Source: a virus
Direction: 5' to 3' (one strand)
Length of the DNA stretch: 38,421 bases
IMG/VR virus record: IMGVR_UViG_3300045988_170866
Shown here one piece after another: positions 5,127 to 38,421 of this stretch (positions are counted from its first letter, which is position 1; each line of letters starts with the position of its first letter). Position numbers and translations under genes: made by a program. The notes below the pieces were generated by a model. The model had not been told where the DNA came from, did no database searches, and was given only the letters and a program-made list of their open reading frames with translations.

Positions 5127-5906
5127 ATTTCATTCTTCTTGCCTTAAAGTTCTCAAATTCATTTTCTTCTTGTTCAATAAGATGCTGTTTCTTTTCTTCT
5201 TCAAATAATCCAGGGTAATAATCCCATAATTCATTGATTTCAATAGCTTTATTTTCTTCACTGAAAATAACTGATATTCCTTTAAGCAGTTGATCAGCAA
5301 GAATATGATTGTCGATTGCTATTTGCTTTTGTTTTCTCTTTTCTTTTCTTCGATACGATTCGATATAGTCAGTGATTTCAAGTACCGAAGATTCCCAAAA
5401 TAAAAATGAACTGATATCACAATCTAAAGCAATTGGATAAAGTTCATTTATTAAATCGGTTAAAAATTCATATTCTACATTAGCTCCTTCGCTTCCACTA
5501 GTTTCTTGTCCATTGTGTCCGCTTGAGCTTGGGAGAAAAAACCACTTACCTGATAAATTGGCAAGAACACATCCGTCATGAATGTCATTTGAGTTCCGCC
5601 CTCTTCACAATATTTATCAAATAATTCGATGACATCATCTTCTTTGATTCCATGTTGGAACTTTTTCATTGCACCATGTGTAATCAATAACATTACTTTC
5701 AATGGTGGCAATGAACCATCATCAGCACTAGAAATAATCGTTAATAGGTTAACTCTTAATTTTGATTCTAAGCTGACAATTTCAGAAGTAGTGAGTTTTA
5801 ATCTGTATTCTTTACCATCAACTTCCCAAATGGTAAAAGGTTTTCTTTTTGGTGCCTCAACGACTTCTGCTTGAACTTCTTCGGTTTCTCCACTTAATAC
5901 TCCCAT
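5086..5906 (-). CDS. tail assembly chaperone, long form made by -1 programmed frameshift (G-T type)
   Basis: The zero frame runs 5906 to the slip site. The -1 frame stays open from 5535 to TAA at 5086-5088 (checked codon by codon) and has no start codon of its own. Confidence 0.75.
5475..5906 (-). CDS. tail assembly chaperone, short form
   Basis: 143-aa acidic ORF between the major tail protein and the tape measure. Confidence 0.75.
   Translation of the reverse strand: MGVLSGETEEVQAEVVEAPKRKPFTIWEVDGKEYRLKLTTSEIVSLESKLRVNLLTIISSADDGSLPPLKVMLLITHGAMKKFQHGIKEDDVIELFDKYCEEGGTQMTFMTDVFLPIYQVSGFFSQAQADTMDKKLVEAKELM
5535..5541 (-). promoter_or_regulatory. -1 slippery heptamer U UUU UUC
   Basis: The minus strand reads ggT TTT TTC in the zero frame (codons G122-F123-F124), 20 codons before the chaperone stop. 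Confidence 0.7.
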
Positions 5907-15333: not shown

Positions 15334-15407
15334 TGGTTGCAGGACCAGGAATCGAACCTGGAATACAAGCTAAAGAGACTTGCGTTATACCTTTTTACTA
15401 CCCTGCT
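15334..15407 (-). tRNA. phage-encoded tRNA, anticodon position reads CUU (Lys), noncanonical loop
   Basis: Full cloverleaf on the minus strand:
- Acceptor stem is 6 bp plus an A.A opposition at 1:72.
- U8 is present; the D arm is GUAA/UAAC with A14 and GG.
- Anticodon stem is CAAGU/GCUUG, with loop CUCUUUA.
- T arm is CCAGG-UUCGAUU-CCUGG.
- The ACCA 3' end is encoded. Confidence 0.6.
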
Positions 15408-25925: not shown

Positions 25926-26327
25926 TTATTTTGAAATGACAATTACATACTCTTCACATTGCAAATGCCCATTTCCAACTTGTCTTGTATATAGCTTTGC
26001 TTCTATTCCAGTTCCCACAAAAAGAGAATTCATTTCATCAATCTTTCTTTGGGCATATTCCTTATCTCCATACCAGGGAATACTTGTTCTGCCAGCAATC
26101 ACTGTGCCTTTTTTATCTATTGGTGTAAGATCCGCAACTTCTAAATTCAAAGCATTTGCAATCTTACAAGCGATTAATAATTTACATTGAGAATTATCTC
26201 TATTGATAATTTCACTTATAGTTGAACGATGAACTCCACATTTCTTTGAAAAATCTTTGATTGTGTAATTTTGTTTGGCTATTTCCAACGCAACTTTCTT
26301 GCTGTCAAGCGTTACCATTTGAATCAT
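25926..26327 (-). CDS. XRE-family HTH protein with extra C-terminal domain (133 aa)
   Basis: HTH region YTIKDFSKKCGVHRSTISEIINRDN; RBS aaaggaggaatggaaat. Confidence 0.7.
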   Translation of the reverse strand: MIQMVTLDSKKVALEIAKQNYTIKDFSKKCGVHRSTISEIINRDNSQCKLLIACKIANALNLEVADLTPIDKKGTVIAGRTSIPWYGDKEYAQRKIDEMNSLFVGTGIEAKLYTRQVGNGHLQCEEYVIVISK

Positions 26328-28409: not shown

Positions 28410-28431
28410 TTTGCTGAAGGAGGTGATAATA

Positions 28432-28812
28432 ATGAATTTCGAAAGTATGACAATAAATGAAAGAATATATTATTTAAGAAAGAAAGTTTTGAAGATTTCT
28501 CAACGTGAATTAGGAAAAATATTAGGTGTTGGTGATACTGCTGTATCAAAACTTGAAAAAACTGGAAGTACTGTAACTGAAAGAAACATTAAAGCAATTT
28601 GTAATGAATTTAATATAAGTTATAATTGGTTAGTTGATGGCGTTGGTGATATTTTTATTGAAGATGACAAATCAACCATTGAATTGTTAAAAAGAGATTA
28701 TAATTTAAGAGATGTAGAAGTTAGGCTTATTGAAGAATTTTTAAAGCTTGATGAAAATGAACGTGATGTTCTTATAAATTATTTAGAAAGAGCTGTTGGA
28801 AAAGGTGAATAA
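28432..28812 (+). CDS. XRE-family repressor paralog 1 (one HTH module plus shared C-terminal domain)
   Basis: ATG at 28432 follows gaaggaggtgataata. The HTH is ISQRELGKILGVGDTAVSKLEKTG, and the NYNWLVDGVGDIFI motif is present. Confidence 0.8.
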   Translation: MNFESMTINERIYYLRKKVLKISQRELGKILGVGDTAVSKLEKTGSTVTERNIKAICNEFNISYNWLVDGVGDIFIEDDKSTIELLKRDYNLRDVEVRLIEEFLKLDENERDVLINYLERAVGKGE

Positions 28813-28814
28813 AC

Positions 28815-29402
28815 ATGCAACAAATCGGAGATAGGATCCATTCATTAAGAAAAGGATTAGGAATAAGCCAAGGAGAGTTTGGAAGCAAAATAGGTATTAA
28901 AAAATCATCTGTTAGTTCCATGGAAAAAAATAAAAGTAATCCTTCAACTCAAACCATCAAATTGATTTGTGTTGAATTCAATGTGAATTACGATTGGCTG
29001 GTTAACGGTGTTGGCGATATTTTTATTAAAAATAATAATTCTATTCATGAAAGAATTAAATATTTAAGAAAAGACATTCTTCACTTAACACAAATTGATT
29101 TTGGAAAAAGAATCGGTATTGCTGGAACAACTGTAACTGGTTGGGAAAAACGTAATATGAATCCAAGTGAAACAGCTCTTAAAACGATATGTTACGAATT
29201 CAATGTTAACTATGATTGGTTAGTTGATGGAGACGGGGATATTTTTATTGAAAATAACGATTCTATTGAATTACTGAAAAAAGATTATGATTTAGAAGAT
29301 AATGAAGTTAAAGCTATCAAAGCTTTTTTAAATTTAAATAAAGTTGAGCGTAAAGTTCTTGTATATTATTTAGAAAAAGCATTTGGAAAAGATGGGCAAT
29401 AG
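28815..29402 (+). CDS. XRE-family repressor paralog 2 (two tandem HTH modules plus shared C-terminal domain)
   Basis: Two copies of the HTH...NYDWLV.G.GDIFI module, and a C-terminal ELLKKDYDLEDNEV...YYLEKAFG matching paralog 1. Confidence 0.8.
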   Translation: MQQIGDRIHSLRKGLGISQGEFGSKIGIKKSSVSSMEKNKSNPSTQTIKLICVEFNVNYDWLVNGVGDIFIKNNNSIHERIKYLRKDILHLTQIDFGKRIGIAGTTVTGWEKRNMNPSETALKTICYEFNVNYDWLVDGDGDIFIENNDSIELLKKDYDLEDNEVKAIKAFLNLNKVERKVLVYYLEKAFGKDGQ

Positions 29403-29414
29403 TTGCCCATTGAA

Positions 29415-29531
29415 TTATTTAGATTTTCTATAAAGCTTATGTACTGCTTTATAGATAACATCTAGTAATTCTAGATCATCAATTTGCATCAATATTCTTG
29501 TGATGCATTTGATATATTCTTCTTTAGACAT
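29415..29531 (-). CDS. 38-aa ORF between repressor and integrase, not in the ORF track
   Basis: ATG at 29531 follows ggaggtgatatgc. The product is MSKEEYIKCITRILMQIDDLELLDVIYKAVHKLYRKSK. Confidence 0.4.
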   Translation of the reverse strand: MSKEEYIKCITRILMQIDDLELLDVIYKAVHKLYRKSK

Positions 29532-29562
29532 GCATATCACCTCCAAAGAAGAAAATTATAAC

Positions 29563-29602
29563 AAAATAAAAAGAACTCCCTTACTGGCAATAAGGAAGTT
29601 CT
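29563..29602 (-). terminator. minus-strand intrinsic terminator upstream of the integrase gene
   Basis: 12-bp stem with arms at 29572-29583 and 29591-29602 and one mismatch, followed on the minus strand by tttttatttt. Confidence 0.5.
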
Positions 29603-29695
29603 AAAAGTGTAAAAGCAAGAACCTATGATGTGCTTCTACGTTTTTAATTTTAACATATTAGCACATCTAAATTAAATAGAAAGGATGTGTTTTTT

Positions 29696-30793
29696 ATGTC
29701 TGTACATAAAGATGAAAAGACCGGTAAATGGTATTACACTGGTAAGTATCGTGATTTAGCAGGAAAGCGACATGATTATAAGAAAAGAGGTTTTAAAACT
29801 AAAAAAGAAGCAAAGGCTGCAGAAGATGCGTTTTTATTAAAAATTAAAGGTGGCCAAGGAAGAATTAAGATGAATGCTTTAATTGAGCTTTATCATCAAG
29901 AAATGAAAAGCGCTATTAAATATTCTACATTGAGAATGTATGAAATGATTGAACGATTACATATAATTCCTTTTTTTGGAGATAGGTATATTGATACGAT
30001 AAAAACTGTTGATATTACTAAGTGGAATAAAGAAAGAGCTTTGACTGGCAATAATGGTGGTCCTTATAGTCAAGAATATACCAATAATTTATATTTGCAT
30101 ATGTCGGGGCTTTTAACTTTCGCTGTTAATCATAAACTATTGGATGATAATCCTTGCAAGTATGCTAAGCCTTATAAAGATCCTAATGAAGTGAAGAAAG
30201 AAGAAAATGCTGTTGAAAACTTTTGGGAAGTAGATGAATTTAATAAATTTATTGCTACTGTTGAAAATATTGATCATAAAGAAACTTATGATACACTATT
30301 TTTAACTGGATTAAGAATTGGAGAACTTTGTGCGTTAAGATGGTGCGATTTGGACTTGGAACATAAGAAATTAAGTGTTAGAGGTTCATTTAGTACAGCA
30401 TCAAGAAAAGTTACTTCTCCAAAAACGAAAACATCTATCAGGACAATAGATCTTCCTAATCGACTTGTTGAAGAATTAAAACAAAGATATGAAAGAAAGA
30501 AAAAATTAGATGGATTTAATGATCTTTATTATGTTTTTGGTGACATTGCTGTAACTTGGCCAGGAACATTCCGTTATCGTTTCAATAACGATTTAAAGAA
30601 CGTGGATGTAAAACATATAACGATTCACGGGTTTAGACATAGTCATGCCAGTTATCTTCTTTCTAATCCTATGATTAGTGAGAGCTTAGTTGCTGAAAGA
30701 TTAGGCCATTCTATTGATATGCTAAGAAGCACTTATGCTCATATTTATGAAAAAAGGCGTACTGCTTTAGTCGAATATATAGAAAAATTATAA
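29696..30793 (+). CDS. int: tyrosine integrase with N-terminal arm-binding (AP2-like) domain
   Basis: N-terminus SVHKDEKTGKWYYTGKYRDLAGKRH...KTKKEAKAAE. Catalytic motifs are GLRIGELCAL, HGFRHSHASYLL and LGHSIDMLRSTYAH. Confidence 0.9.
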   Translation: MSVHKDEKTGKWYYTGKYRDLAGKRHDYKKRGFKTKKEAKAAEDAFLLKIKGGQGRIKMNALIELYHQEMKSAIKYSTLRMYEMIERLHIIPFFGDRYIDTIKTVDITKWNKERALTGNNGGPYSQEYTNNLYLHMSGLLTFAVNHKLLDDNPCKYAKPYKDPNEVKKEENAVENFWEVDEFNKFIATVENIDHKETYDTLFLTGLRIGELCALRWCDLDLEHKKLSVRGSFSTASRKVTSPKTKTSIRTIDLPNRLVEELKQRYERKKKLDGFNDLYYVFGDIAVTWPGTFRYRFNNDLKNVDVKHITIHGFRHSHASYLLSNPMISESLVAERLGHSIDMLRSTYAHIYEKRRTALVEYIEKL

Positions 30794-30797
30794 AATG

Positions 30798-30817
30798 TCG
30801 TCCATTTGTCGTCCACA
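30798..30817 (+). repeat. 20-bp direct repeat TCGTCCATTTGTCGTCCACA, copy 1 (candidate integrase arm site)
   Basis: Identical to 30981-31000. Each copy contains TCGTCCA twice. Confidence 0.85.
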
Positions 30818-30824
30818 TATTATA

Positions 30825-30855
30825 AAAAGCCTCGTATAATCGAGGCTTTTTGTTG
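30825..30855 (+). terminator. integrase terminator
   Basis: aaaagcctcg-tataat-cgaggctttt, followed by tgttg. Confidence 0.7.
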
Positions 30856-30980
30856 ATTAGTCTAAATCAGCACCAATTATCCCCTATACTATAGTTCTCT
30901 ATAAACCCTTATAAATGCCCATTTATTTATATACAATTCTATATAATTTCTATTGATTTTTTACTGTTTTTTAGCTTCAT

Positions 30981-31000
30981 TCGTCCATTTGTCGTCCACA
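30981..31000 (+). repeat. 20-bp direct repeat TCGTCCATTTGTCGTCCACA, copy 2
   Basis: Identical to 30798-30817. Confidence 0.85.
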
Positions 31001-31040
31001 AAAACAAAAAAGAACCTACTCAAAATTGAGTAGGTTTTAT
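31001..31040 (-). terminator. terminator of the toxin-antitoxin cassette
   Basis: Stem aacctactc/gagtaggtt (31013-31021 / 31028-31036), followed on the minus strand by cttttttgtttt. Confidence 0.65.
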
Positions 31041-31051
31041 GTACATTAATA

Positions 31052-31522
31052 TTAACCGTGTTTGTAAGCAGAAAAGTCATGATCTATACCAAAAATATGA
31101 AATATAGCCTTACATTTCTTACTTCTATATCCAATCAAGCGATATTTATTTCCTCCAAATCTAATAACCCATACTTTAGTATCTCTAGTAAGGTTTAATT
31201 CATTTTGAGGATCTAGTGCATTAAAATTGATTTGTGAGTAATCTAGCAATTCTCTTCCACCTTGAAATTTATTCTTACTTCTCAAGGATTCCCACCCATC
31301 AATACTCATTCTATTTAAACAATCATGAAACGCATTTAAAACATCTATATCGTCTCTAAAATTCCTGCTTCCTTTAAATCCTTTTAAATTATAATTATCT
31401 TGATTTGTAAGATACTTAAAAGAAAATAATATCGTATCATGTTCATTCATGAATAAACATTTCATTTTCACGTCTAATTTAGATAATTTATTATTTTCTT
31501 GCTTTCGTTTTAATTTAGCCAT
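31052..31522 (-). CDS. toxin candidate paired with the Panacea antitoxin (unclassified; RelE/ParE/Gp49-like C-terminal core)
   Basis: 156 aa. Its ATG shares base 31522 with the antitoxin stop. The C-terminus is VWVIRFGGNKYRLIGYRSKKCKAIFHIFGIDHDFSAYKH. Confidence 0.55.
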   Translation of the reverse strand: MAKLKRKQENNKLSKLDVKMKCLFMNEHDTILFSFKYLTNQDNYNLKGFKGSRNFRDDIDVLNAFHDCLNRMSIDGWESLRSKNKFQGGRELLDYSQINFNALDPQNELNLTRDTKVWVIRFGGNKYRLIGYRSKKCKAIFHIFGIDHDFSAYKHG

Positions 31523-31977
31523 TAATCAGTAATATATGTTTTTTCAAAATATTCTTTTATTAAAGGTAAAGGAATTACTTCGTTTCTTTGTGTTTTTAAC
31601 CAAGGGTCTTCTTGATGTGTCATGTTTCTTAATCCCCATGCAGAATACTTTCCAAAAATATCATACACTTCTTCTAAAATTGCAGTTGTATCCTTATCAA
31701 TAGAACTATCATAATCTCCTTGATATTCTATTCCATTTGATCCGTTATTTTTATATTTATGGTAGATTTCTTCTACAACAGGACCATGTGCCCAATTTAC
31801 AATTTGTTCATTAAATAATGGTTCATTTTTTAATGCTAAATAACATCCTTGAGCATAATACAATAATTTTTGCAATTTTAAGTTAGATATCAAATCAGCA
31901 TCTTCCTCTTCTAGGATTTTGTCATTGTACCACAAAAACCACTTTGCTACTGTCAAAGCAGAATACTTTCCTTTCAT
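31522..31977 (-). CDS. Panacea (DUF4065) domain antitoxin, SocA/PanA-like
   Basis: ALTVAKWFLW...NLKLQKLLYYAQGCYLALKNEPLFNEQIVNWAHGPVVEEIYHKYK; RBS ggagggaaaaaatt. Confidence 0.85.
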   Translation of the reverse strand: MKGKYSALTVAKWFLWYNDKILEEEDADLISNLKLQKLLYYAQGCYLALKNEPLFNEQIVNWAHGPVVEEIYHKYKNNGSNGIEYQGDYDSSIDKDTTAILEEVYDIFGKYSAWGLRNMTHQEDPWLKTQRNEVIPLPLIKEYFEKTYITD

Positions 31978-31999
31978 AATTTTTTCCCTCCATACAATA

Positions 32000-32067
32000 A
32001 TTCACATAAACATTAAGTTATTCACATTTTCAACGTTATTATATCAAGGCTATTCACAATTTGGCAA
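32000..32067 (-). promoter_or_regulatory. promoter and repeated operator of the toxin-antitoxin cassette
   Basis: On the minus strand: TTGCCA (32067-32062), 18 nt, TGaTATAAT (32046-32038). Three direct TATTCACA-type repeats lie at 32000-32006, 32019-32026 and 32051-32058. Confidence 0.55.
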
Positions 32068-32190
32068 TATTTTTCTCGTTTAGAAACCTTTTATACTCCT
32101 TTATACCTCTTCATATTATTATAAAACACTCTATATTGTGTTAAAATTCTCTATTTTATTTATATGCCATTTTTCCATAAAAAATACACT

Positions 32191-32232
32191 AAAAGCGAAA
32201 AAACCTACCCAAATTAACGAGTAGGTTTTTTT
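32191..32232. terminator. bidirectional-looking terminator after the endolysin gene
   Basis: Stem aacctac/gtaggtt (32202-32208 / 32221-32227), flanked by an A-run upstream and a T-run downstream. Confidence 0.6.
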
Positions 32233-32339
32233 ATTTAGTTAATAAATAAGGTTGTAGATTTTTTAGAAGAATAGATAATATTACATTTCACTTTTTTATT
32301 AACTAATACAACAAATTTGCATATACATTATACATCAAT

Positions 32340-33077
32340 TTATACTTTTTTTAAATATTTTCCTGACATCCAACCACTTGGAGTTCTCGCAAAACCATTT
32401 TTCCATTCATAAACAGTTACTCTTGTTCCTCTTTCAAGACATCCATCTTTGTCCTTATCGTGTTTTTGGCCATCTTTAGTTAATTCATTATGAGTTTTTC
32501 TTCGATAATTAGTACCAGGACCAGTTCTTACTGATAAATCACTGGCAGTAACTTCATATGTTCCTGTTGATCTTTCACTTGATGAAGTTGATTGTGATGG
32601 TTTAGCTGCAGGAGTTGGTGTAGGTGTTGAAGTAGCAACTTCTTTTACGATTTCATCAAAAGGAAAATTAGTACCAGGACAATTTGTTGAACAAACATCC
32701 TTATGTTTTTGTACTTTAGAAATTCCATATTTTTTCTTTAAATAAGAAACCAACTCTCTACCAGAGTTGATTTGAGCTTGTGACATTGTTTCTGTCATGT
32801 AGCTTCCTTCAAAACAAATACCAATTGAATTGCTGTTTGAACCTTTAGCATGTGATCCAATAACATTTTCAGGTCTACCTCTATAAATAGATCCATCTTT
32901 TCTTACGAAGAAATGATATCCAATACCTGCCCATCCATTTGCTAAATGCCATCTATGAATATCATCTGCAGTACATGATTTTGATTCAGCGTGATGAAGA
33001 ATAATTCTATTAGTTGCCTTTCTATTTGATAATTTTCCATTCCATTTGTAAGTTTTTTCAATAATGTTCATTTTCAT
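32340..33077 (-). CDS. endolysin: N-acetylmuramoyl-L-alanine amidase (PGRP/Amidase_2) plus Thr/Pro linker plus SH3-like wall-binding domain
   Basis: ILHHAES...WAGIGYHFFVRKDGSIYRGRPENVIGSHAKGSNSNSIGICFEG, then TPTPTPAAKP, then YEVTASDLSVRTGPGTNY... Confidence 0.9.
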   Translation of the reverse strand: MKMNIIEKTYKWNGKLSNRKATNRIILHHAESKSCTADDIHRWHLANGWAGIGYHFFVRKDGSIYRGRPENVIGSHAKGSNSNSIGICFEGSYMTETMSQAQINSGRELVSYLKKKYGISKVQKHKDVCSTNCPGTNFPFDEIVKEVATSTPTPTPAAKPSQSTSSSERSTGTYEVTASDLSVRTGPGTNYRRKTHNELTKDGQKHDKDKDGCLERGTRVTVYEWKNGFARTPSGWMSGKYLKKV

Positions 33078-33083
33078 TTCCTC

Positions 33084-33524
33084 CTATAAATCAATATTTT
33101 CCATAACTGCTCTAGCTTCTAAAACAGCAATATAATCTTTCATAGCTTTTAATTGTAAATCATATGTGCTTCTAGGACATGTTGGTTTAAAAGGCAAACA
33201 ACCTTTGTCCCAATTTTCAATCATTCTATTTAAGCCATTGTATCTAATAACAAGTTGATTATATTCAGATTTAAATCTCTCTTTGTAATCACTACTAATC
33301 ATACCAATAGCTGTTTGAGGTAATGCATCAGCATTATATTCTCTATATGATTCATCAAATGGCTTTTTAGGAGACCAACTTTCATAATCATTAGAATATT
33401 TAACTAAATATCCTTCATCATTAGGATCTTCATCTCTTGGAATAGTCCATCCACGATATTTGTTATAATCTCCTCTTGTCATTGGTTTTGCTTCAATTAG
33501 TTTAACTCCAACATATTGTTTCAT
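33084..33524 (-). CDS. conserved phage hypothetical protein (146 aa)
   Basis: The N-terminal KPMTRGDYNKYRGWTIP..EDPNDEGYLVKY..YESWSPK motif is widespread in phage proteins of unknown function. Confidence 0.6.
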   Translation of the reverse strand: MKQYVGVKLIEAKPMTRGDYNKYRGWTIPRDEDPNDEGYLVKYSNDYESWSPKKPFDESYREYNADALPQTAIGMISSDYKERFKSEYNQLVIRYNGLNRMIENWDKGCLPFKPTCPRSTYDLQLKAMKDYIAVLEARAVMENIDL

Positions 33525-33528
33525 TGTT

Positions 33529-33795
33529 TTATTTTCCTCCTAGTTTAATACATCTATTTTCAAATTTTTTATAAGCATCAAAATAAAGTTCTTTCTTATC
33601 ACCGTTATATGTTAATTCGTAATACATACCATCAGATAATGTTGTACTTAATAATGCTTTGCTATTTTGTAATGTTTTACAATTCCAAACAACAAAAACA
33701 TCAAAATTAATTTCGCCATCCGTTTTGTCAAGATGTTCTTCTGTGTACTCTCTAACTGTTTTTTTACATAAATCTAAAAATTCATCTGAATCCAT
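33529..33795 (-). CDS. conserved small phage protein (88 aa)
   Basis: ATG at 33795 follows aaggagattgtaaaa. It carries the motif WNCKTLQNSKALLST..DGMYYELTYNGDKKELYFDAYKK. The track's longer form would read through a hairpin. Confidence 0.55.
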   Translation of the reverse strand: MDSDEFLDLCKKTVREYTEEHLDKTDGEINFDVFVVWNCKTLQNSKALLSTTLSDGMYYELTYNGDKKELYFDAYKKFENRCIKLGGK

Positions 33796-33867
33796 TTTTA
33801 CAATCTCCTTTGTTGCTAATTCCGTTTTAACAACCATTTTTTTCGATTTTTGGTTGTTAAATGATAA

Positions 33868-33888
33868 AAGAGGGTTATTCGCCCTCTT
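33868..33888 (-). terminator. hairpin directly after the holin stop (weak terminator or attenuator)
   Basis: aagaggg-ttattcg-ccctctt, followed on the minus strand by ttatcattt. Confidence 0.35.
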
Positions 33889-33891
33889 CAA

Positions 33892-38344: not shown

Positions 38345-38421
38345 TTATCTTTATCCTCCTAAAAGTCCAACGTACAAGTAAATGTACATTTTGTATTTAT
38401 ATCATTTGAAGTGATTGTGAA
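38345..38421. repeat. terminal direct repeat, identical to 1-77
   Basis: 77/77 identity read directly. Confidence 0.95.

Follow-up and report, generated by a model that had tools for sequence, protein, structure and literature searches.

Background

Panacea-domain antitoxins (PanA) and their partner toxins (PanT) were surveyed by Kurata et al. 2022 (PMC8832971), who predicted 1,268 PanAT pairs with toxins falling into 88 clusters. Three members of T1, apparently the first of these clusters and also the largest, were assayed in E. coli: the C. cadaveris protein WP_074844970.1 is toxic and is not neutralized by its PanA, and the proteins from E. coli MOD1 (WP_077635758.1) and Salmonella phage Emek (YP_006560566.1) are non-toxic. 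All three are labelled predicted "mRNase" (PMC8832971), which is the only form in which the fold of this cluster is on record. Stand-alone Panacea domains neutralize their toxins directly, and Ernits et al. 2023 (PMC10440598) regard Panacea as an improbable autoregulator of such modules. Here we describe a panA-panT cassette on the minus strand of a phage sequence of 38,421 nucleotides (nt), the IMG/VR record IMGVR_UViG_3300045988_170866 (below, "the window" denotes this entire stretch). We find that the cassette is a conserved pair whose toxin candidate belongs by homology to T1, and present evidence that points to a fold of the RelE/HigB type for this toxin family.

Identification of the pair as a member of cluster T1

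The upstream gene of the cassette, panA (31522..31977, minus strand), codes for a protein of 151 amino acids (aa) that is of the antitoxin type and has a stand-alone Panacea domain. An earlier note on this DNA, made from its letters alone, had read this open reading frame (ORF) as a Panacea/DUF4065 antitoxin and had proposed profile searches as a check; these bear out the reading. The Pfam model PF13274 (SocA_Panacea) matches residues 35-126 with E = 4.7e-22 (79.5 bits against a cut-off of 25.7), and phrog_1281 matches residues 3-147 with E = 8.9e-47. Proteins identical to it carry the NCBI name 'Panacea domain-containing protein [Faecalibacillus]'. Pfam searches recovered no domain other than Panacea in PanA, including no DNA-binding domain of the helix-turn-helix (HTH) or ribbon-helix-helix (RHH) type, and its score against the NCBIfam SocA equivalog NF047745, 61 bits, lies below the cut-off of 190. 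By analogy with the stand-alone Panacea domains studied to date (PMC10440598), PanA would neutralize PanT by binding it directly.

The downstream gene, panT (31052..31522, minus strand), codes for a 156-aa toxin candidate; the coordinates and lengths of both ORFs agree with those of the earlier note. That note left the partner unclassified and suggested that it might be a new PanA-associated toxin, and on this point it has to be revised. The listed T1 member Emek orf161 (YP_006560566.1) is recovered by the profile of the PanT family with 43.7 bits (E = 1.3e-15, positions 23-147) and by BLASTP with the window PanT itself (E = 4e-5, ~28% identity); it ends in the residues ...EFNLYKH. The preceding Emek gene, orf149, codes for a Panacea protein and shares 62 nt with orf161, matching the table of Kurata et al. 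Since this T1 member matches the family profile so clearly, the window PanT can be placed by homology in the already catalogued T1 family. As Faecalibacillus is missing from the tables of Kurata et al. and the window PanT is itself not listed there, the window copy represents a new member of T1 and not a new kind of toxin. PanT further matches phrog_8366 (E = 2.6e-8), an orthologous group with unassigned function that is also matched by 129 of 149 family members; it has no match in Pfam (even at E<=1), NCBIfam or PADLOC.

A word-indexed search with PanT recovered 14 close homologues, and an exhaustive profile search at least 317 cluster representatives (50% level) at E<=1e-3, 183 of them at E<=1e-10; nearly all members of the family are 130-170 aa in length. 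Among the GenBank phages in INPHARED, neither the cassette (megablast) nor PanT, the family consensus or P0070 (tblastn) found a match. The exact PanT sequence is present in 2597 blocks of an index of assembly collections (gut metagenomes), and NCBI names for proteins identical to both cassette products point to Faecalibacillus. A search for related loci among species genomes found only a prophage of F. faecis (L012).

In every relative with a readable context, the PanT homologue is encoded directly downstream of a Panacea gene. Relatives that are 57-88% identical to the window PanT and reside in different phages show a 1-nt overlap with the Panacea gene every time, and those with 57-65% identity lie behind lysins of the Amidase_3, Amidase_2 or CHAP type. 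Distant relatives (31-36% identity) occur directly after a Panacea gene in chromosomal islands that are not prophages, and a copy on a Legionella plasmid follows, with a +1 gap, a gene annotated as a SocA-domain antitoxin. Altogether, the 1-nt overlap is seen in the window and at L001-L009, L012 and L024-L031, and distant members (L032-L037) have a +1 gap or overlaps of 8 and 17 nt. The FlaGs criteria used by Kurata et al. for a two-gene locus call for a gap of <=100 nt conserved across species, and the spacing of panA and panT falls within this limit. The two proteins diverge in parallel (72-95% identity for PanA, 57-90% for PanT), and both genes are under purifying selection: the ratio of non-synonymous to synonymous substitution rates (dN/dS) is 0.035-0.048 for panA and 0.11-0.24 for panT. 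A further T1 pair, that of Emek (L039, 14764-15637), lies between injection-protein genes and the mnt/arc immunity region and not beside the phage attachment site (attP); thus, the family is not tied to one phage slot.

Predicted fold and candidate active site of PanT

The earlier note had likened the C-terminus of PanT to the sheet of RelE and ParE and had suggested structure prediction followed by a fold search. An AlphaFold model made from a diverse 25-sequence alignment reached a predicted local distance difference test score (pLDDT) of 84.5 and a predicted template modelling score (pTM) of 0.77; an alignment of 10 close homologues had given an unusable pLDDT of 37.8. In the model residues 1-20 are disordered and basic, and the remainder has the order beta-alpha-alpha-beta-beta-beta-beta, with a first strand (32-34), a short helix, a long helix (55-82) and four strands. 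A Foldseek search of 350,542 PDB chains with this model returned HigB toxins as the top three matches, albeit without significance: 6af4_C of S. pneumoniae as the best (probability 0.92, target-normalized TM-score 0.54, E = 0.095), 5ycl_B of Shigella and 5ifg_C of E. coli. The likeness appears to extend over the whole predicted fold and beyond the C-terminus that had first drawn attention.

Sequence comparisons point in the same direction. PF09907 (HigB_toxin) is weakly matched by 3 of the 149 members (best E = 0.0031), which is the most for any Pfam family. For targeted profile tests we built an alignment of relatives of E. coli HigB: hhalign of the PanT family against it gave P = 0.0025, and a HMMER search with the HigB profile matched residues 74-131 of the window PanT with 11.8 bits (P = 1.3e-5; none of 2000 shuffles scored as high). 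In the aligned core PanT reads VWVIRFGGNKYRLIG against yVfNvGGNelRvia in HigB; the PanT hairpin is GGNKYRLIG, and some HigB relatives read GGNKYRLI outright.

Several observations weigh against this assignment and against the functional reading built upon it. The Foldseek E-values range from 0.095 to 0.8, with TM-scores of 0.43 (query-normalized) and 0.54 (target-normalized); the hhalign probability is just 11.8% over 32 columns; no Pfam model reaches its threshold on PanT; and HMMER profiles of the family, including a deeper one, match no solved structure among the PDB sequences. Moreover, HigB was picked for the targeted tests after the weak matches had been seen, so that the P values are not fully independent, and no line of fold or homology evidence is significant on its own. 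Because none of these lines passes a database-wide threshold and HigB was chosen after the PF09907 matches, we rate a RelE/HigB-type fold for PanT as fairly probable and not as established. Matches to hemocyanin in the PDB (E = 6e-7) were rejected as spurious, being sums of five weak repeats, each with an i-Evalue >= 23. A Foldseek search against the viral structures of BFVD gave nothing significant, and its top matches carry no functional annotation.

Examination of sequence conservation across the 149 members revealed a small set of nearly invariant residues: Y153 and H155 are present in all 149, R128 in 148, G89 in 145, E91 and D147 in 144 each, and R121 in 139. R68 of E. coli HigB, itself invariant, lines up with R128. 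We infer that E91, R121, R128, D147, Y153 and H155 form a candidate catalytic set located in the active site. This is reminiscent of the catalytic Glu/Arg/His/Tyr tetrad (E46, R65, H83 and Y84) that Kamada and Hanaoka in 2005 reportedly described for YoeB. E91, R121, D147, Y153 and H155 are all retained in the Emek and Legionella proteins, which have an alanine at R128; as a speculation, the missing R128 may explain why Emek orf161 is non-toxic. In the HigB of S. pneumoniae, the sheet residues R68, R73 and F90 matter for RNase activity (PMC7984235).

Organization and location of the cassette

The layout that the earlier note had described, namely overlapping genes with their own promoter, repeats and terminator in a slot between the endolysin terminator and attP, is upheld at each of these points. 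On the minus strand the junction of the two genes reads ACTGAT TAA TG GCT, with the panA stop codon TAA (31524-31522) and the panT start codon ATG (31522-31520) sharing base 31522 in a TAATG. A Shine-Dalgarno sequence, GGAGGG (31986..31991, minus strand), lies 8 nt 5' of the panA ATG, and the sequence before the panT ATG contains none.

A consensus scan identified a minus-strand promoter of the form TTGCCA-18 nt-TG-n-TATAAT, with an extended -10 element, at 32038..32067. With 11 of 12 consensus positions plus the TG it is the top-scoring site within 29400-32600, and it is kept in L012, the prophage of F. faecis, and at loci L015-L019 of four IMG/VR contigs. As the total of promoter-like sites in this region (23) is not in excess of that in shuffled sequences (20.4), the call rests on the quality, position and conservation of the site. 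Downstream of panT there is a terminator with a 10-pair stem followed by a T run (31013..31036, minus strand), and the upstream boundary of the cassette is formed by the endolysin terminator, with a 14-pair stem and a T run (32198..32231, minus strand). The two terminator stems are near-duplicates, both having AACCTACTC...(G/A)GTAGGTT, and related loci likewise have similar terminators on both sides; this near-duplication may be a trace of the insertion or exchange of the cassette. Rfam recovered no family at gathering score in 30600-32400, with sub-threshold matches falling on the terminators.

Upstream of the cassette lie, in order, genes for a holin, a DUF6275 protein, a PF21825 protein and an endolysin of the Amidase_2 family (32340..33077, minus strand). 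Downstream and on the opposite strand is the gene for a tyrosine integrase with an Arm-DNA-bind_4 domain (29687..30793, plus strand). Seven integrated prophage loci (L024-L031) track the window from the toxin stop codon to ~30866-30857 and then continue into host genes. Because these copies diverge into host DNA there, we place attP, or more precisely the phage/host junction at the edge of its core, at 30857..30866, ~190 bp past the toxin stop. Direct repeats of the TCGTCCATTTGTCGTCCA type (TCGTCCA), at ~30797-30816 and ~30981-30998, stand on either side of this junction within an attP region that spans 30797..30998, and are probably integrase arm sites. Taken together, these observations support the view that the pair stands in the lysin-attP slot as a unit of its own, complete with promoter, genes and terminator.

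Repeats at the promoter

The direct repeats mentioned above are three exact copies of TGTGAAT on the minus strand, with start-to-start spacings of 32 and 20 nt: one in the spacer between the -35 and -10 elements (32052..32058), one just downstream of the -10 element (32020..32026) and one in the leader (32000..32006). The motif is not enriched overall, with 7 copies on both strands of the whole window against a shuffle mean of 12, but the clustering of 3 of these 7 copies within 59 nt that overlap the promoter is strong. No other cluster was found in the window, including its lysogeny region. The first two repeats are conserved in L012 and the four IMG/VR contigs (loci L015-L019); the third is degenerate (TGTGACT) in the L012/L019 lineage. 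The module at L009, which belongs to a different phage and whose PanA and PanT are 77% and 63% identical to those of the window, has three tandem 9-nt units, AATGTGAAC AATGTGAAT ATTGTGAAT, right after its TATAAT; these TGTGAA(T/C) units lie at about 5470-5500, upstream of panA at 5537. Since a different phage thus has three copies after its -10 element, the motif appears to travel with the module. The modules at L005-L008 and L022 have other upstream sequences, in which the motif is missing.

We consider the repeats probably to be a repressor site acting on the cassette promoter. Whether PanA is the protein that would bind there is nearly an even call: that they are not a PanA operator, and are instead recognized by some regulator of the host or phage or play no part in regulation, is only a little short of even in our estimate. 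Speaking for this are the composition of the window PanA, which consists of the Panacea domain and gave no match to an HTH or RHH, the view of Ernits et al. (PMC10440598) that Panacea is an improbable autoregulator, and the homologous modules without the motif. Pulling the other way are the concentration of the copies over this one promoter, their conservation in L012 and L015-L019, the recurrence of tandem copies at the same place at L009 and the lack of any further cluster in the window. Two other identities were examined and set aside. Integrase arm sites were rejected, as the repeats lie ~1.1 kb from the attP junction and it is the TCGTCCA repeats that flank attP; operators of the phage CI/Cro type were rejected because the motif forms no cluster elsewhere in the window. 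A bolder proposal, that PanA or the PanA-PanT complex binds TGTGAAT and autoregulates the cassette and that, at the same time, T1 is an N-terminally extended branch of the RelE/YoeB/HigB toxins deployed in prophage defence, strikes us as a long shot. If true, it would mean that Panacea can bind DNA in a way that present studies discount, and that T1 toxins encoded by prophages serve for defence in a human gut bacterium that is very common.

Natural variants of the pair

In a sublineage whose toxin is 82% identical to that of the window, all members carry D147E. At L022 (toxin 638-1111) the toxin has G88D, E91G and G123E at family-conserved positions, and panA is intact. At L020 and L021, one of which is an isolate-derived and the other a metagenome-derived viral contig, panA (2049-2501) has a TAT-to-TAG stop at about codon 39 together with an in-frame 3-nt deletion, and the toxin ORF is intact and carries Y132C and D147E. 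Between L022 and L020 the dN/dS of the toxin is ~1.6, a value resting on few changes (dS 0.012), against 0.11-0.24 elsewhere. These alleles fit a course of decay in which the toxin was weakened first and the antitoxin thereby became dispensable.

Proposed mechanism and alternative explanations

On the whole we think it likely, if by no great measure, that the cassette is a type II PanAT module whose toxin is a RelE/HigB-like, translation-dependent RNase. Under this proposal, it would be a moron that a temperate Faecalibacillus phage carries at its end next to attP. As the cassette has its own sigma-70-type promoter, transcription in the lysogen is to be expected. PanT would then be made by re-initiation at the TAATG; since panA has a strong ribosome-binding site and panT has none and starts within the panA stop codon, less PanT than PanA should be produced. 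PanA in excess would bind PanT directly, and free PanT, with a basic, disordered N-terminal tail predicted to precede its fold, would cleave mRNA on the ribosome. RNase activity, toxicity, neutralization and regulation are what we infer from the sequence, and the fold assignment has moderate support.

To the reservations about the fold must be added those concerning function. Two of the three T1 members tested are non-toxic in E. coli and the toxic one is not rescued by its antitoxin (PMC8832971); the order of the genes is unlike that of HigBA, with the antitoxin coming first and not being an HTH protein; two contigs have a truncated panA next to a panT that is intact; and the argument from decay is thin, with very few substitutions behind it (dS 0.012), so that the same alleles can be read as a sign that PanT is not very toxic. 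These points lead to the alternative that PanT does not act as a growth-arresting toxin at all and that the cassette is a Panacea-associated module with another job, such as sensing or regulation. The behaviour of the E. coli MOD1, Emek and C. cadaveris proteins (PMC8832971), the premature panA stop beside an intact panT in contigs from two independent sources, the suggestion of Ernits et al. (PMC10440598) that Panacea may chiefly be a sensor and the lack of any curated toxin model that matches PanT would all suit it. We nevertheless regard it as unlikely. The pairing with PanA is strict, and across unrelated contexts and identities of 30% to 99% the frames overlap or nearly abut; one T1 member is in fact toxic (PMC8832971); an RNase would agree with both the modelled fold and the invariant set of Glu, Arg, Tyr and His; the absence of R128 from the Emek and Legionella proteins could account for the non-toxic Emek member; and the lineage with the panA stop also has D147E and relaxed constraint on the toxin, as expected if the toxin had been disabled first. 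If the fold is right, PanT could still act on another target, as a ParE-like gyrase poison or in some other way that is not that of a ribosome-dependent mRNase, given that RelE and ParE share a common fold with different activities (PMC10440598), that the fold match is approximate and that PanT is ~50 residues longer than HigB or RelE. However, the top structural matches are HigB RNases and not ParE, Kurata et al. labelled T1 'mRNase' (PMC8832971), and RNase members typically carry such an invariant set of Glu, Arg, Tyr and His, YoeB being a parallel; we hold such a target to be very improbable.

A separate question concerns what a PanAT module of the proposed RNase type would do for the phage. 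It might serve the lysogen mainly as an anti-phage system, by abortive infection or superinfection exclusion, in place of acting as an addiction module that stabilizes the prophage. Its place in the moron slot between lysin and attP, the promoter and terminator that belong to it, the presence of another PanAT pair in the equivalent slot of Listeria phage B025, the repeated ties of toxin-antitoxin modules and NetFlax systems to defence (PMC10440598) and the high frequency of the exact PanT in gut metagenomes (2597 index blocks) would be in keeping with this. On the other hand, no model of PADLOC-DB 2.0 matches PanA or PanT at E<=1, there is no known trigger for the cassette, we found no published phage challenge of a T1-family PanAT, and position alone is weak evidence. 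We treat a chiefly defensive role as doubtful.

Other features of the phage

The window carries an exact 77-bp direct repeat at its two ends (1-77 and 38345-38421) and has a G+C content of 32%; from these features we take it to be a circular phage genome assembly of ~38.3 kb. In the lysis region, the DUF6275 protein (33529-33891, minus strand; E = 1.3e-33) belongs to a family that is also encoded beside holins at L006-L009. Between the holin-side genes and the endolysin, a 146-aa ORF (33084-33524, minus strand) matches PF21825 in its C-terminal half (E = 1.3e-18); this family is labelled crAss001_48-related in the copy of Pfam that we used and 'Sequestin' in precomputed tables. The equivalent position at L009 is occupied by a Tad2-like gene. 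The lysogeny module (28411-29402, plus strand, and 25926-26327, minus strand) codes for three HTH proteins, one of which, 195 aa in length and encoded just upstream of the integrase, has two HTH_3 stretches and a match to PF07022, the HTH of CI-type repressors. The phage also encodes a tRNA-Lys(CTT) (15334-15407, minus strand).

Significance

The Panacea domain, its toxin partners including T1 and the lysin-attP slot are already known. What the analysis contributes for T1 is the hypothesis of a RelE/HigB-type fold together with a short list of candidate catalytic residues. Added to this are natural alleles that appear to have a disabled toxin or have a truncated antitoxin, and the promoter repeats, which offer a concrete way to ask if Panacea modules autoregulate. 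The window copy of the pair is intact and under purifying selection, occurs in thousands of gut metagenome assemblies and belongs to a prophage that is very frequent in the human gut; it is well suited to be the first T1 pair that is validated in full.

Comparison with known systems

The antitoxin of the type VI system SocAB of Caulobacter has the same Panacea/SocA domain as PanA. The window pair differs from it in that PanA scores 61 bits against the SocA cut-off of 190 and the toxin is not SocB; SocA is a proteolytic adaptor, and such an action is not expected of the window PanA. In Listeria phage B025 the pair gp27/gp28 occupies an equivalent slot, with the order endolysin, PanA, PanT, attP and integrase, and its genes likewise overlap with the antitoxin first. 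Its toxin gp28 belongs to the MazF/PemK-like cluster T9 and is unrelated to the window PanT; when considered as a possible relative, it was rejected, as it gave no match to the family profile.

Among toxins of known structure, the best matches to PanT are the HigB proteins (PF09907) of E. coli (5IFG), Shigella (5YCL) and S. pneumoniae (6AF4), with which it has in common the GGN hairpin and, going by its model, conserved arginines of the sheet and a tyrosine near the C-terminus. Unlike HigB, PanT is ~50 residues longer, has a basic, disordered N-terminus and the long helix 55-82, falls below a Pfam-level match and is paired with an upstream Panacea protein and not with a downstream HTH protein, HigA. 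The C-terminal motifs also differ, being D-x5-Y-x-H in PanT and H-x2-Y-D in HigB.

The closest counterparts are the T1 pairs themselves, none of them so far fully validated as toxin plus antitoxin (PMC8832971). Those of Emek (orf149/orf161) and C. cadaveris (WP_074844973.1/WP_074844970.1) likewise have a stand-alone Panacea gene first, a partner of ~140-160 aa and overlapping frames, and T1 members likewise reside in phages and prophages. The partners have the FSF..., G.E, RF and terminal Y.H motifs in common with the window PanT. What distinguishes the window pair from these examples is its residence in a Faecalibacillus phage and the TGTGAAT repeats at its promoter; the window PanT also retains R128, which is missing from the Emek protein, as it is from that of Legionella.

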